Origin: Escherichia coli
GTDB taxonomy: Bacteria > Pseudomonadota > Gammaproteobacteria > Enterobacterales > Enterobacteriaceae
Strand: one strand, 5' to 3'
NCBI RefSeq assembly: GCF_003790525.1
Contig: NZ_CP033635.1
Length of the DNA: 64,000 nt
This document shows, piece after piece, positions 5,055 through 21,052 of the stretch. Under the pieces are notes generated by a model. The model searched no databases and was not told where the DNA came from. It saw only the letters and a program-made list of their open reading frames with translations. The position numbers and the translations under genes were made by a program. How positions within the stretch are numbered: the first letter of the stretch is position 1; each line of letters starts with the position of its first letter.

Positions 5055-6519
<1,465 letters not shown>

Positions 6520-16593: not shown

Positions 16594-16722
16594 ATGAATA
16601 CTAACGTTTTTCGACTGCTCCTGCTGGGAAGCCTGTTCAGCCTTAGCGCCTGTGTGCAGCAAAGCGAAGTGCGGCAGATGAAACACAGCGTCAGCACACT
16701 GAACCAGGAGATGACGCAACTC
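16594..16722 (+). pseudogene. yajI: 5' fragment of lipoprotein gene yajI, interrupted by an IS200/IS605-family element
   Basis: MNTNVFRLLLLGSLFSLSAC lipoprotein signal; the frame continues into IS-derived sequence after codon 43 (MTQL, 16711-16722). Confidence 0.75.
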
Positions 16723-16733
16723 ATTGACATCCT

Positions 16734-16753
16734 CCACGCCCTGAAGGACGTGG
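16734..16753. repeat. Subterminal hairpin at the tnpB-proximal end of the IS element (right-end type)
   Basis: ccacg / cgtgg stem with loop ccctgaagga, about 11 nt inside the inferred end. Confidence 0.6.
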
Positions 16754-16766
16754 ATCCCTGCTACGT

Positions 16767-17975
16767 TCAGGCTGTCGCCTGAATCATTTCGGTGGGTTCC
16801 TGCTTCAACGGGCGGCCTGACTGCACCATCCCTCCACAGGCAAGAACGGCGTGCCCCGCCGCTAAAATGTTACGAGCGCCATTTACATCGGCGTTCGCTG
16901 TATATCCACATACCTGGCATCTGAATTGACTTTGTGACAGGCGATTTTCTTTCGCTGTATGACCACAGCACGTGCAACGCTGGCTTGTGTACGCTGGCGG
17001 AACAGCAAGCACCTGACCGCCACGCCAGAGCTGCTTGTACTCAAGCTGGCGGCGCATTTCATACCAGCCCTGATCCAGTACCGAACGGTTTAAACCTGAT
17101 TTTGCCCGGACATTGCGTCCCGGCTGGCTGACCGTACCCGCTGCTGACTTTGACATGTTGCTGACCTTCAAATCCTCAATGACTATCATTGCGTGGTTTT
17201 TGCTGACGGTCGTTGTGACTTTGTGAAGGTAGTCCCTGCGGATATTTGCGATACGGGAATGCAGTCGCTGTATTTTGCGTTTCTGCTTCTGCCAGTTATT
17301 GCTGAATTCGACCTTGCGGCTTAACTGTCGCTGAAGTCTCGCCAGCGTCTTCTGGTTTTTCTGAAAACTGTTTACAGGCTCAAAGACTGTGCCATCTGAC
17401 AGCGTGGCGAGTTTAGCCACGCCAGCATCCAGCCCGACCATTGATGCTGAAGGGTGAACCGGAGTGGATACTTCACTTTCTGTCTGAATACTGATGTACC
17501 ACTTACCGCAGGACTGGCTGACAGTGACATTTTTCACAACACCCGTGACCTGGCGGCTGTTCCGGTAGCGCATCCAGCCCAGTTTCGGCAGAAAAATACG
17601 GCTGTTTTCCTGATCGAGCTTAACGCCCTGCGGGTAGCGGAATGCATCATTCTGTCCCCGCTTTTTGAATCGGGGAAAAGCAGCCCGCTTCTGGAAGAAG
17701 TTTTTGTAAGCCCGCTCAAGGTCTTTCAGTGACTGTTGCAATGGCTGTGAGGGCGAATCTTTAAGCCATTGCGTTCCAGTGGCGTTTTTCCACTCAACCA
17801 GCCAGGAAGCCATTTTCCCGTAAGGGATGTATTTATTACCGGCCTCATGATTCTCATTCTGAAGCGCCAGAGCACGATTGAAAACGAAACGACATGCGCC
17901 TGCGAAGCGCCTCATTTCATGCTCCTGTTGACCACCGGGTCTTAACTGGAATTTAAATGCCTGTAGTCGTTTCAC
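16767..17975 (-). CDS. tnpB: TnpB (OrfB) RNA-guided endonuclease of an IS200/IS605-family element
   Basis: 402 aa; RuvC-like motifs ([23 protein letters not shown]) and a C-terminal CxxC...CxxC zinc finger; N-terminal KFQLRP...RFVFNRAL helix; GTG start at 17975. Confidence 0.88.
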
Positions 17976-18045
17976 AGGTCAAATTATATTTTGGTCTGTG
18001 AAAAAAGAAACCGATATCCGGCGTGGAAGGCATTGTGTTTTCCTG

Positions 18046-18420
18046 ATGCATGTTCACCTGGTCTTTGTCCCAAATACCGACGCCAGATTTTTGACCATGA
18101 CGCGACAGAAAAACTACGCACTTACTTTTCAAATGTATGTGCTGATTTTGAAGCTGAACGGGTTGAAATGGATGGCGAACCAGATCACGTCCATTTGTTA
18201 ATTAACTATCCTCCCAAACTGGCGATATCCAGTCTGGTAAACAGCCTCAAAGGTGTATCGGGTAGGTGACTGCGACGAGATCGACCAGATATTGCAGTCA
18301 GGTATTACTACAAAGGCGTTTTGTGGAGTCCTGGCTATTTTGCCAGTAGCTGCGGAGGTGCGCCAATATCCGTCATCCGCCAATACATTGAACAACAGCA
18401 AACACCTGGTCAGGTGGAAA
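18046..18420 (+). pseudogene. tnpA: IS200-type HUH (Y1) transposase tnpA, disrupted by at least two frameshifts
   Basis: Conserved segments are split across three frames: MHVHLVFVP (frame of 18046), PKYRRQIF...EPDHVHLLINYPPKL...SLKGVS (frame of 17991) and WSPGYFASSCGGAPISVIRQYIEQQ (frame of 18321). The first shift coincides with the aaa run at 18071-18073. Confidence 0.75.
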
Positions 18421-18434
18421 ACCGCGCCTTATAT

Positions 18435-18454
18435 CCCCGCCCTGAAGGACGGGG
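18435..18454. repeat. Subterminal hairpin at the tnpA-proximal end of the IS element (left-end type)
   Basis: ccccg / cgggg stem with the same ccctgaagga loop as at the other end, about 19 nt inside the inferred end. Confidence 0.6.
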
Positions 18455-18472
18455 TTTTACGGCGCACCGGAT

Positions 18473-18880
18473 AAAGAAACCGTCAAAATCACTCAGCAAA
18501 ACAGGCTGAATGCAAAATCCAGCAGTGGGGTTTACCTTCTGCCTGGAGCGAAAACACCGGCAAGACTGGAAAGCCAGATCGGTACTTTACGTATGTCGCT
18601 AGTGAATATTACGCATGATACAGATGGCACCACCCTGACGCTACGTATTCAGGGCGAGTCGAATGACCCCTTGCCCGCATTCAGCGGAACTGTTGAATAT
18701 GGGCAAATTCAGGGAACAATAGACAACTTTCAGGAAATCAATTTGCAGAATCAATTGATTAATGCCCCTGCCAGCGTCCTCGTCCCCAGCGATGTTGATA
18801 TTCCGTTACAGTTAAAGGGGATTTCTGTAGAACAGTTAGACTTTGTACGTATCCACGACATTCAACCTGTTATGCAGTAA
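18473..18880 (+). pseudogene. yajI: 3' fragment of yajI downstream of the IS insertion
   Basis: Frame reads ...ETVKITQQNRLNAKSSSGVYLLPGAKTPARLESQIGTLRMSLVNITHDTDG... to a stop at 18878-18880; out of frame with the 5' fragment because of the insertion. Confidence 0.7.
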
Positions 18881-20535: not shown

Positions 20536-20850
20536 TTACCAGTGACGGCGAGGTTCCATCAGCTGATGAAGAATGCGCGCAATGAGAATGTCATCGACTC
20601 TTATAACGTAATAAACAGTGTGAAACCTAAATGCGATCTTCTTTACCTCTGGAATCGCATCATAGTCTTGCCCTATCTCGGGCATTTGAGAGAGTGTATC
20701 CAGAAAAATGCCGAGAGAGTCGGTATAGCGATCCGCCTGCTCCTCACCAAACTTTCCCAGCGTGTAGTCATAGATCCCTCTGAAATCTTCAACAGCTTTT
20801 CCGCTAAGCTTATACACGATGTTTTTGCTTCCTTTCTGCTGCGATATCAC
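20536..20850 (-). CDS. ParE/RelE-superfamily type II toxin
   Basis: About 100 aa with a ParE-like profile (KNIVYKLSGKAVEDFRGIYDYT ... RFHTVYYVIRVDDILIARILHQ); only in-frame start is GTG at 20850, overlapping the antitoxin 3' end by 41 nt, so the start is uncertain. Confidence 0.65.
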   Translation of the reverse strand: MISQQKGSKNIVYKLSGKAVEDFRGIYDYTLGKFGEEQADRYTDSLGIFLDTLSQMPEIGQDYDAIPEVKKIAFRFHTVYYVIRVDDILIARILHQLMEPRRHW

Positions 20851-21052
20851 GAAGCGTCATCGAACTTTCACCGCTCTCAAGACCTTCAATAACAGCATTT
20901 CTGACAGCTTCATCCCTGGATTCTTGTTGTTCCAATAGACGAAGCGCTGAACGCATTACTTCACTGGCCGAGCCATAACGACCAGACTGGACCATCCGTG
21001 TAATAAAACTATCTAATTGTTCGCCAACGCTTACTGAGGTAATTTTGCGCAT
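20810..21052 (-). CDS. ParD/CopG-like ribbon-helix-helix antitoxin
   Basis: 80 aa, ...SFITRMVQSGRYGSASEVMRSALRLLEQQE... typical of the ParD antitoxin family; ATG at 21052 with ggagat Shine-Dalgarno; immediately upstream of the ParE-like toxin. Confidence 0.7.
   Translation of the reverse strand: MRKITSVSVGEQLDSFITRMVQSGRYGSASEVMRSALRLLEQQESRDEAVRNAVIEGLESGESSMTLRDIAAERKQKHRV

Follow-up and report, generated by a model that had tools for sequence, protein, structure and literature searches.

Two conserved hairpins in yajI of Escherichia coli, probable subterminal palindromes of an IS609 copy with an inactivated tnpA

The lipoprotein gene yajI of Escherichia coli is interrupted in the window, the stretch of 64,000 nt analysed here, by a segment that carries a short hairpin close to each border. 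The locus raises the question whether these hairpins are the ends of a transposable element, whether they are kept for their structure, and whether they could still be mobilised. On the plus strand they read ccacg-ccctgaagga-cgtgg (16734-16753) and ccccg-ccctgaagga-cgggg (18435-18454); a re-reading of the window found sequences and coordinates exactly as an earlier note on this DNA had given them. Both stems are perfectly paired and differ in a single base pair, A:T versus C:G, so that the exchange with retained pairing described in that note was confirmed. In the 64-kb window a degenerate 20-mer matched at the two hairpins and nowhere else, and it had no match in 100 shuffles. For the central 10-mer by itself there is one more match, at 1220-1229 on the minus strand, which was rejected as a third hairpin and regarded as a chance match because no stems flank it.

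The 10-mer had been read as a 10-nt loop, which is a mis-parse. Folded as single strands, the minus strands of both hairpins (-7.7 and -11.6 kcal/mol) form a continuous stem of 8-9 bp that closes on a 4-nt loop, TTCA, whereas the plus strands (-6.9 and -9.5 kcal/mol) are bulged and contain a C.A mismatch. The T.G wobble of the hairpins pairs on the minus strand only and is C:G or T:A in relatives. Thus the minus strand, not the plus strand on which the hairpins were first written, is the structured, active strand of both. Taken singly, the hairpins have modest fold z-scores (-2.2 to -2.9). The palindrome IP_R next to tnpB, in the end termed RE, comprises CCACGTCC TTCA GGGCGTGG (16734..16753, minus strand), with 9 bp if 16733:16754 is counted. 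IP_L, next to tnpA in the end termed LE, comprises CCCCGTCC TTCA GGGCGGGG (18435..18454, minus strand), with an 8-bp stem including one T.G wobble, and is surrounded by an outer LE stem (18423..18466, minus strand; arms 18459-18466 and 18423-18430). Both imperfect palindromes are subterminal and direct copies on one strand, as in the IS200/IS605 family, which is without terminal inverted repeats.

The limits of the element were obtained from the empty yajI site of E. coli 042 (...gcaactca|ataaagaaac...), whose flank differs from that of the window by one SNP, 11 nt from the junction. It fixes a complete copy of 1,747 bp at 16724..18470 (minus strand), with no target duplication; the flanks, when joined, match the intact yajI of 5,083 genomes. 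The insertion separates a 5' fragment of yajI (16594..16723, plus strand), identified by the PGAP annotation of SMS-3-5 and the intact yajI matches, from a 3' fragment (18471..18880, plus strand), identified by the PGAP annotation and the empty site. On the minus strand, the top and active one, the order is LE, inverted tnpA, tnpB and RE. Between the element end and the foot of IP_L lies the 16-nt LE tip CCGGTGCGCCGTAAAA (18455..18470, minus strand); its last four nucleotides, AAAA, directly 5' of the foot, form the left guide G_L (18455-18458, minus strand). The target or left cleavage site C_L, TTAT (18471..18474, minus strand), lies outside the element, reads TTTAT together with 18475 and would double as TAM for TnpB. 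In all independent insertions examined, the top strand has TTAT directly before CCGGTGCG, on its 5' side. At the other end, the guide G_R, GGAT (16754-16757, minus strand), adjoins IP_R, and the 10-nt RE tip AGGATGTCAA (16724..16733, minus strand) finishes inside the element with the right cleavage site C_R, TCAA (16724-16727, minus strand). Conservation in 30 sequences ends exactly after GTCAA. Identical termini, TTAT|CCGG... and ...GTCAA|, were present in 10 copies at 9 loci, and two contigs collapsed from repeats, 1,752 and 1,753 nt long, start with TTAT/TTAC and finish with GTCAA. Insertion 3' of a specific tetra- or pentanucleotide without duplication is typical for the family; the 46-nt derivative described below likewise lies 3' of TTAT. 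The hairpins are separated from the ends by 10 nt on the tnpB/RE side and 16 nt on the tnpA/LE side. The asymmetry claimed earlier, with the short distance at tnpB, therefore stood, while the distances of about 11 and 19 nt had to be revised, the ends having been placed 1 and 3 nt off relative to the empty site. Junction mapping, named in the earlier note as a possible refutation, gave ends consistent with the hairpins.

In E. coli, IS609 is represented by the K-12 insQ/ydcM locus and the O157:H7 copies. The two hairpins are very probably IP_L and IP_R of an IS609 copy in yajI, a member of the IS200/IS605 family with the divergent tnpA/tnpB of the IS605 type; this assignment is based on a copy named by PGAP and on a published table, not on the ISfinder reference sequence. 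The window copy is 100 % identical to SMS-3-5 NC_010498.1 457131-458877. The O157:H7 copy, whose tnpA is named IS609 family by PGAP, is 97.5 % identical over 1,747 bp, and copies at ydcO, yedK, yeaQ and ytfB/TetR share 97.5-98.5 % identity with it along their whole length of 1,747 bp. IS609 is tabulated with the LE site TTAT and the RE site TCAA (PMC9956272 Table S1), and both are present in the window copy as in the other copies. It differs from these by the yajI site and three inactivating tnpA lesions, and from some of them, which have a T:T allele of the RE hairpin, by the paired A:T allele. The yajI insertion was found at 99 % identity or more in about 86 records, and all 30 among the matches listed were located in yajI. 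TTAT, TCAA, the missing duplication, the remnant of a Y1/HUH tnpA and an OrfB/TnpB gene bear out the IS200/IS605-type ends proposed earlier. In the literature on insQ/TnpB and IS609, no functional study of IS609 ends or RNA was found.

The tnpA gene (17983..18413, plus strand) is a pseudogene of a Y1/HUH transposase, annotated by PGAP as frameshifted with an internal stop. Within 17998-18509, two reading frames gave matches to the Pfam family Y1_Tnp (E=1e-20 and 3e-6). Compared to the intact, 143-aa tnpA of the O157:H7 IS609 copy, three lesions are present: G>T at 17985 removes the annotated ATG, a 1-nt deletion before 18070 shifts the frame, and T>G at 18268 turns a Leu codon into TGA (18267-18269). 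In contrast, tnpB (insQ; 16767..17975, minus strand) is an intact ORF of 402 aa, assigned by Pfam and a structure match to the RNA-guided endonuclease family. It contains the domains OrfB_IS605 (E=5e-34), Cas12f1-like_TNB and HTH_OrfB_IS605 and can be aligned over its whole length with ISDra2 TnpB (structures 8bf8/8exa, E=1.3e-53), with catalytic motifs aligned, their residues present and two CxxC pairs. As frameshift and stop leave no own TnpA and all cis sites and tnpB are intact, the yajI copy is non-autonomous for transposition and, judged from its sequence, would depend for any movement on a TnpA provided in trans. SMS-3-5, the same genome, contains a sister copy between yfeD and gltX with the same three tnpA lesions, and the 1-nt deletion, common to both, is absent in five other copies. 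Thus at least two loci are occupied by a lineage with dead tnpA. This would be consistent with past mobilisation in trans; the shared lesions could also come from gene conversion. Mobilisation of the ends in trans, suggested by the earlier note, gains plausibility from the intact cis elements and from the spread of the dead lineage to at least two loci. A search of the genome for an intact IS609 tnpA showed it to be dead in both full-length copies, yajI and yfeD-gltX. A third IS609 place in SMS-3-5 lacks the RE-proximal 120 nt and is for this reason probably a partial copy. A helper TnpA would therefore have to come from outside or from this third, apparently partial copy.

For the question of selection on structure, 30 relatives were gathered via TnpB and not via the hairpin. 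In their RE hairpins 98.1 % of the cells were paired, with double changes at 3 of 9 pairs. The pair flagged earlier was U.G in 13 relatives, A-U in 6, C-G in 6 and U-A in one; U.G pairs are common in this hairpin (13/30 and 15/30). With 98 % pairing in the 30 relatives and compensatory changes at the very pair it had singled out, the earlier proposal of selection on structure held. The LE hairpin was nearly invariant among 19 LEs, with 96.7 % of the cells paired and T.G replaced by G:C once, and the outer LE stem was paired in 98.5 % of the cells with changes on both sides at 3 of 7 pairs across relatives (variants GTGCGCC/GGCGC, GTGTGCC/GGCAC and TTAGTC/GACTAA). The whole structures were paired to 97-98 % versus 36-55 % with slid partners, and the observed covariation was reached in none of 500 shuffles. 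The hairpin motif occupies the same positions in elements of more than ten genera. Among the relatives sampled, those with a TnpB identity of 75 % or more in which this end is retained carried an RE hairpin 3' of the tnpB stop, with compensatory variants; 3' of tnpB the motif was absent in relatives at 61-63 % and 30-35 % TnpB identity (Photorhabdus, K. pneumoniae ATCC 13883, Cetobacterium and others). Sequence comparison thus indicates that both hairpins are maintained by compensatory substitution across relatives. Several natural copies have mismatched hairpins: the covarying pair is T:T in those at yedK, yeaQ and yfeD, while the O157 copy with intact tnpA has C:T and the K-12-type LE has A:C; therefore pairing is not strictly required for persistence.

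The sense-overlapping transcripts (sotRNAs) at tnpB 3' ends are now understood as omega RNAs of TnpB. In the window copy, a structured region over the tnpB 3' end through RE (16733..16944, minus strand) ends in the RE hairpin and is a putative omega RNA scaffold on the basis of sub-threshold Rfam matches and covariation. The consensus has 8 helices with 97.0 % of the cells paired versus 36-52 % when slid, 32 double-change cells versus 11.4 in shuffles, and 7 double-change pairs; the covariation score was reached in 0 of 500 shuffles. Helices upstream of the RE hairpin covary as well, as expected of an omega RNA. No Rfam family reached its gathering score (HgcC 23.8 versus 50, RAGATH-18 28.1 versus 44.9, sot0042 17 versus 88 bits), and the matches at permissive thresholds serve as a lead, not as membership. 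On the minus strand all three placed their terminal stem-loop on the RE hairpin, and in the HgcC and sot0042 models the terminal hairpin and the following GGAGGA..GUCA align to 16724-16754 (minus strand). The HgcC and sotRNA families were built from archaeal sequences, and the IS609 region scores below their gathering thresholds. A published "RE-like tetraloop" has an 8-bp stem and a UUCA loop, and RNA-seq data of E. coli K-12 are reported to contain sotRNAs (PMC4615843). Like this tetraloop, HgcC (RF00062) and the sotRNAs (Gomes-Filho et al. 2015), RE combines an 8-bp stem, a UUCA loop and a location at the tnpB 3' end. The RE hairpin thus lies in a putative structured RNA at the tnpB 3' end with a likeness to omega RNAs.

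A second role of the RE hairpin, as the final stem-loop in this tnpB-3' transcript, is probable. TnpB is guided by the RE-flanking sequence to a TAM-adjacent target (10.1101/2023.03.14.532601). By analogy, the yajI sequence flanking RE, TGAGTTGCGTCATCTCCTGG (16704..16723, minus strand; top-strand reading), would be the guide portion and direct TnpB to the TTTAT-flanked empty site, the target being TTTAT followed by TGAGTTGCGTCATCTC; TTTAT plus this flank would equal the donor joint after excision. TnpB2 of Geobacillus ISGst2 has the same TTTAT TAM, and the donor-joint logic would carry over; ISDra2 uses TTGAT versus TTAT/TTTAT in IS609. One short hairpin would thus be readable twice, as single-stranded DNA for TnpA and as RNA in the putative guide transcript of TnpB.

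An alternative is that the RE hairpin is selected only as RNA, as omega RNA scaffold, and owes its likeness to the LE hairpin to history rather than to TnpA. The terminal position in the HgcC and sot0042 alignments and the frequent U.G pairs would agree with this, as would the tnpA-less plasmid derivatives that retain tnpB and the RE hairpin, and the window copy itself with tnpB intact and tnpA dead. However, the LE hairpin, outside of any tnpB transcript, is near-identical in sequence and even more conserved, the tnpA-less derivatives retain also the LE hairpin and the TTAT flank, and the 10-nt spacing to TCAA at RE equals the substrate of IS608 TnpA. The DNA and RNA roles can coexist; a pure RNA function is regarded as unlikely.

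Still less probable is that the hairpins are conserved as intrinsic terminators of tnpA (LE, plus strand, followed by TTTTA) and tnpB. A TTTTAC does follow the LE hairpin on the plus strand, and Xenorhabdus and Salmonella LEs form a long perfect palindrome and then a T-run on the same strand, but a terminator scan reported neither hairpin. Only four T follow the LE hairpin on the plus strand and none the RE hairpin (AGGATGTCAA), unlike the G+C-rich stem-loop with an adjoining U-run of an intrinsic terminator. The wobble pairs on the minus strand and turns into a C.A mismatch on the tnpA-sense strand. Termination would moreover leave the shared hairpin, the fixed distances to the cleavage sites and the guide/target covariation unexplained. 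As the scan reported neither hairpin, a terminator at LE on the tnpA-sense strand is at best a weakly supported additional function.

REP or BIME extragenic palindromes, scattered over the genome and flanking the IS by accident, are a highly improbable explanation. REPs are known to be similar to IS200/IS605 end hairpins (PMC3333891), and short single-hairpin derivatives do occur outside of full-length elements. Against this, 5,426 genomes contained the LE 46-mer at 5,909 and the RE 47-mer at 5,862 places, with a median of 1 and at most 5 in a genome, whereas the IS body had 11,016 places; REPs would be expected in hundreds per genome, and membership was rejected on these counts. The abundance of REP-like copies that the earlier note had named as a refutation did thus not appear. 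The hairpins stand at fixed distances from mapped termini and accompany tnpB in other genera, and the single-hairpin derivatives, which carry IS609 tips, were detected in only 481 of the 5,426 genomes with 1-3 copies each, using a 40-mer query unable to seed on normal LE or RE ends. REP elements with RAYT/TnpA_REP share the general hairpin type; here, unlike in REP/RAYT and PATEs, they go together with the termini of IS609, at 1-5 copies per genome, and a RAYT is not involved. A functionless chance repeat, for which the short 5-bp stems as first written and the modest z-scores might speak, can practically be dismissed in view of the shuffles without a 20-mer match and the recurrence of the motif with covariation at the same positions in more than ten genera.

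The solo-hairpin derivatives are 46-nt elements of a 16-nt LE tip, one hybrid hairpin and a 10-nt RE tip. They were located 3' of TTAT at several unrelated sites, in prophage Sp5, an nleD island, phage-plasmids, Col plasmids and a Pantoea plasmid, and form a precise 46-nt presence/absence polymorphism with exact empty sites. A tentative and rather doubtful reading is that the LE and RE hairpins, which are 20-nt direct repeats, collapse into this element and that it may be a minimal substrate movable in trans by IS609 TnpA. If mobile, the 46-nt element would stand, as an intermediate occurring in nature, between a pair of IS200/IS605 ends and a single palindrome of REP type; it resembles a minimal form of PATEs, the ORF-less IS200/IS605 derivatives, or a REP-like unit.

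For IS609 itself, the hairpins are real and under structural selection, and belong to the already described biology of a catalogued element. Subterminal hairpins, TTAT/TCAA of IS609, the guide/target rule and the UUCA "RE-like tetraloop" have been published, and the family biology gains nothing fundamentally new. For the annotation, the exact limits of yajI::IS609 are set at 16724-18470, a copy with all cis sites and an intact tnpB. Its transposition is inferred from IS608 and ISDra2. By analogy to IS608, a TnpA dimer would bind both folded hairpins on single-stranded top-strand DNA, and the guides AAAA at LE and GGAT at RE would pair with TTAT and TCAA and place these sites for the HUH/Tyr active sites. 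The element would leave as a single-stranded circle with the RE-LE junction ...GGATGTCAA|CCGGTGCG..., and the donor yajI would be resealed precisely to ...GCAACTCA|ATAAAGAAAC.... The precise presence/absence polymorphisms of yajI and the 46-nt derivative appear consistent with strand-specific excision and a resealed donor.

IS608 of Helicobacter pylori, the mechanistic model of the family, shares with IS609 the subterminal imperfect palindromes on one strand and the lack of a target duplication. Its RE is cleaved at TCAA, 10 nt from the hairpin, the LE distance is 19 nt (PMC3201880), and its G_L/C_L are AAAG/TTAC (PMC5934647). IS609 has the same C_R, TCAA, 10 nt 3' of IP_R, guide tetranucleotides directly 5' of each hairpin foot and AT directly 3' of IP_L; the asymmetric geometry recognised in the earlier note thus has its short side in common with the IS608 RE, with 16 nt on the long side. 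AAAG/TTAC recurs in five IS609 relatives, while the window copy has AAAA/TTAT. Guide base 4 and target base 4 co-varied: 14 sequences had A and T, five, which may represent one evolutionary event, had G and C, and in none were the two bases unpaired. G_R is GAAT in IS608 and GGAT or GAAT, with C_R TCAA, in the IS609 group. The compensatory changes in both hairpins and the contrast of AAAA/TTAT with AAAG/TTAC are, at the level of sequence, a clean natural confirmation that the IS608 rules apply to the enterobacterial IS609 group. The two elements differ in the sequence of their hairpins, in the distance from C_L to IP_L (16 nt in IS609, 19 nt in IS608), in gene order, with tnpA divergent from tnpB in IS609, the arrangement of IS605/IS606, and co-directional in IS608, and in the LE, where an outer stem encloses IP_L in IS609 and a small second hairpin lies downstream of IP_L in IS608.

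The element splits the lipoprotein gene yajI, which lies between nrdR and tsx, so that each flank is one half of this gene; RefSeq annotates the locus as an IS200/IS605 tnpA pseudogene and a TnpB gene. The minus-strand tnpB is intact (402 aa; Pfam OrfB_IS605, Cas12f1-like TNB and HTH_OrfB_IS605), while the tnpA remnant on the plus strand, coding for a Y1/HUH transposase, is split across two frames. Full-length copies with 97.5-98.5 % identity adjoin ydcO (the insQ locus of K-12/DH1), yedK, yeaQ and ytfB/TetR, and an O157:H7 copy with intact transposase bears the PGAP name "IS200/IS605-like element IS609 family transposase". On the basis of these near-identical copies and this name, the interrupting element is assigned to IS609. 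A 2023 survey recorded 2,046 E. coli genomes carrying IS609, with TTAT as left-end and TCAA as right-end site, and subterminal palindromes are reported for all IS605-type ends (PMC9956272). E. coli SMS-3-5 is 100 % identical over the stretch, and of the 5,426 complete genomes of E. coli, 5,015 contain some portion of it. Just past yajD, SMS-3-5 has an annotated RelE/ParE-ParD type II toxin-antitoxin pair (window about 20536-20970).

The joined flanks aligned without gaps, over 233 nt, to the intact yajI of 5,083 genomes. Comparison of the empty site in E. coli 042 (...gcaactca/ataaagaaac...) with the occupied site (...gcaactca/TTGACATCCT...GCGCACCGG/ataaagaaac...) delimited the IS609 copy to 16724-18470 (1,747 bp) and revealed no target duplication at the yajI insertion. 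In minus-strand reading, cTTTAT/CCGGTGCGCCGTAAAA precedes the left hairpin CCCCGTCCTTCAGGGCGGGG, and GGAT precedes the right hairpin CCACGTCCTTCAGGGCGTGG, which is followed by AGGATGTCAA/tgag. All 10 copies compared, at 9 loci, had TTAT before one end and terminated with GTCAA at the other; among them were relatives with 78 % identity from Xenorhabdus and Klebsiella, and plasmid-borne 1.3-kb derivatives from Salmonella and Klebsiella that lack tnpA. When 30 right ends were aligned, the conservation stopped precisely after GTCAA. The hairpin feet are 16 nt away from the left end (LE, tnpA side) and 10 nt from the right end (RE, tnpB side). The earlier note had placed them at about 19 and about 11 nt, because its inferred ends were off by 3 and 1 nt. 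The derivatives lacking tnpA are IS1341-like in form: over 1,322-1,336 bp they retain the two ends with the TTAT flank and a tnpB that is intact. They are very common on Klebsiella plasmids, with 1,244 Klebsiella records among the plasmid matches.

The plus-strand hairpin sequences ccacg-ccctgaagga-cgtgg (16734-16753) and ccccg-ccctgaagga-cgggg (18435-18454) were read back exactly as first noted. A degenerate 20-mer spanning both, with up to 3 mismatches, had just 2 sites in the 64-kb window and none in 100 dinucleotide-preserving shuffles. A third match to the 10-mer ccctgaagga, at 1220-1229 on the minus strand, has no stems and was attributed to chance. The central 10 nt, initially taken as a loop, are none: on the minus strand positions 6-8 pair with 13-15 (T.G, C:G, C:G), resulting in an 8-bp stem (9 bp at RE) with a TTCA tetraloop, whereas on the plus strand the T.G position is a C.A mismatch. 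Single-stranded DNA folds amounted to -7.7 (RE) and -11.6 (LE) kcal/mol for the minus strand versus -6.9 and -9.5 kcal/mol for the plus strand. Relatives have C:G or T:A at the wobble position, states that fit a pairing on the minus strand only. The same shape, with 8 bp in the stem and UUCA in the loop, has been described as "RE-like tetraloop" for tnpB transcript 3' ends and the HgcC family (PMC4615843). With IS609 catalogued and this motif published, the hairpins were read correctly, as biology that was already known. An outer stem surrounds the LE hairpin (18423-18466, minus strand), in which most of the 16-nt LE tip pairs with the post-hairpin sequence. Covariation of this stem extends across genera, and in a Xenorhabdus relative it forms a perfect palindrome of 21 bp; the guide-adjacent part (TTTTAC to ATATAA) is unpaired in E. 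coli IS609.

Relatives were gathered via the TnpB protein, ignoring the hairpin, and comprised 57 loci from 100k species genomes with TnpB identities from 94 % to 30 %. In sampled relatives with at least 75 % TnpB identity and a retained end, the hairpin lies about 15-35 nt past the tnpB stop and is always followed by the RE tip AGGATGTCAA. The motif was absent within 160 nt downstream of tnpB in relatives with 61-63 % and 30-35 % TnpB identity, among them Photorhabdus and K. pneumoniae ATCC 13883, thus their ends must differ. The stems observed were CCACG/CGTGG, CCCCG/CGGGG, CCTCG/CGGGG, CCTCG/CGAGG and CCATG/CATGG, with inner-pair variants T.G, C:G, T:A and G:C, and a change from C:G to G:C. 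In the 30-sequence alignment the RE hairpin was 98.1 % paired, three of nine pairs had changed on both sides, and the covarying pair spotted from the window sequence was U.G 13, A-U 6, C-G 6 and U-A 1 times. For the LE (19 sequences), 97.9 % were paired versus 37-55 % with slid partners, and 14 double-change cells compared to 3.5 in shuffles (0 of 500 reached the observed value). The compensatory change is thus real across relatives, but mismatched copies persist too. The paired RE allele CCACG/CGTGG occurs in the window, K-12 type, Citrobacter and Salmonella copies, while the yedK, yeaQ and yfeD copies of E. coli IS609 carry CCTCG/CGTGG with a T:T mismatch. Taken with the T.G and C:G seen in relatives, these two alleles suggest the path C:G, T.G, T:T, A:T.

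The RE hairpin probably has a second role in RNA. Rfam yielded three sub-threshold matches on the minus strand at 16711-16894, HgcC (E=0.009), sot0042 and RAGATH-18; in the HgcC and sot0042 alignments the terminal stem-loop, followed by GGAGGA..GUCA, falls on the RE hairpin and tip. A conserved, covarying multi-helix structure extends over 16733-16944 (minus strand), covering the final ~210 nt of tnpB and the RE, and is presumably the scaffold of the omega RNA, the guide transcript of IS609 TnpB. Upstream helices covary (182:206, GC 17 and AU 12; 138:158, GC 19 and AU 9). Of the cells in the whole structure 97.0 % were paired versus 36-52 % with partners slid by 1-3 columns, and 32 double-change cells contrasted with 11.4 in shuffles, none of 500 reaching the observed value. 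Full-length alignment of the TnpB to structures of ISDra2 TnpB had E=1.3e-53; GLDAG, IEDL and a 10-letter motif align to the RuvC motifs of homologues, and both CxxC pairs are present. In the published TnpB logic, the TAM, the site read by TnpB, is identical with the target of TnpA, and TAM and RE flank together make up the donor joint; Geobacillus TnpB2 uses TTTAT. Following this logic, a transcript through RE would carry TGAGTTGCGTCATCTC... as guide, and TnpB with this yajI-flank guide would target the empty yajI site TTTAT/TGAGTTGCG....

Selection of the RE hairpin at the RNA level only cannot explain the LE hairpin, which is equally conserved. A function as transcription terminators is not supported by a terminator scan, and the strand asymmetry of the hairpin pairing speaks against it. 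REP-like amplified palindromes, named in the earlier note as a possible refutation, are excluded by the counts of the LE 46-mer (5,909 places) and the RE 47-mer (5,862 places), which have a median of 1 and a maximum of 5 per genome and are both rarer than the IS body (11,016 places).

Compared to the intact O157:H7 gene, the window tnpA is damaged at three places: one nucleotide is deleted before 18070, a T>G at 18268 creates TGA, and by a G>T at 17985 the annotated ATG is lost. SMS-3-5 contains a second full-length IS609 between yfeD and gltX (NC_010498.1, 2608585-2610333), located 3' of TTTAT, a junction seen in 535 genomes. This copy has all three tnpA lesions in common with the window copy, while five other copies lack the deletion. 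Between the yfeD-gltX copy and the window copy there are 23 differing positions; in the former, tnpB is frameshifted (+CC) and the RE hairpin has a T:T mismatch. The earlier note had proposed a search for an intact tnpA elsewhere in the genome; both full-length IS609 copies of SMS-3-5 are without TnpA, and a third place is apparently partial. The suggested mobilisation in trans predicts just such a tnpA-dead lineage at two loci; gene conversion, however, is an alternative source of the shared lesions. In O157:H7 Z1836, which has the intact IS609 tnpA, the RE stem is broken (CCACG/CTTGG, C:T mismatch), hence this enzyme-encoding copy may itself be a poor substrate.

Short BLAST matches to the LE only proved to be whole elements of 46 nt, in which a single hairpin is framed by the 16-nt LE tip and the 10-nt RE tip, with TTAT or TTAC directly 5'. 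They occupy several sites unrelated to one another and were present in the Pantoea plasmid pPATHpab, twice in the E. coli Col plasmid pMTY9803_Col2, and in E. coli chromosomes and plasmids, including the Sakai prophage Sp5 (NC_002695.2, 1304826-1304865). With a 40-mer query unable to seed on normal ends, 524 places were counted in 481 of 5,426 E. coli genomes, 1-3 per genome. In the E. coli form the stem is a hybrid: its left arm, CCCCG, is that of the LE and its right arm, CGTGG, that of the RE, which leaves a C:T mismatch at the covarying pair. Such a stem would be expected from a deletion running from one of the directly repeated hairpins to the other. One phage-plasmid site exists as an occupied and an empty allele, and the difference between them is precisely these 46 nt, directly after TTAT and without duplication. 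The 46-mer may move by itself or stem from in-situ collapse of full-length insertions. Unlike in full-length copies, the 3' flank begins with AT at the four distinct E. coli sites. A variant solo element on ~60-kb plasmids (p14EC047a) has a left part, GCGCCTTATAT, that is the reverse complement of the normal post-LE-hairpin sequence, which suggests a hairpin-centred inversion or rearrangement.

In IS608 of Helicobacter pylori, TnpA binds subterminal palindromes on the top strand, and the left cleavage site TTAC lies outside the element, 19 nt 5' of the left hairpin (PMC3201880). The cleavage sites are recognised via pairing with guide tetranucleotides directly 5' of the hairpin feet, AAAG on the left and GAAT on the right (PMC3201880; PMC5934647). 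IS609 fits this model with the right cleavage site TCAA at 10 nt, the left guide AAAA and the left cleavage site TTAT; binding, cleavage and single-strand circle steps would proceed by analogy. Among relatives, guides ending in G (GTAAAG) go with the flank TTAC and guides ending in A (GTAAAA) with TTAT, with 14 U-A, 5 C-G and no unpaired guide/target combinations. AAAG/TTAC was carried by Yersinia ruckeri, Buttiauxella, a Plautia symbiont and a MAG, AAAA/TTAT elsewhere in the IS609 group, a case of natural retargeting. As all five AAAG elements may belong to one clade, the shift was possibly a single event; judged from the sequences, it is the change that the IS608 rule predicts. The distance from left cleavage site to left hairpin is 16 nt in IS609 and 19 nt in IS608, and the right guide is GGAT in IS609, whereas IS608 and many IS609 relatives have GAAT. 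Both elements share AT as the two bases 3' of the left hairpin, and the AAAG/TTAC pair of some IS609 relatives is the pair of IS608.
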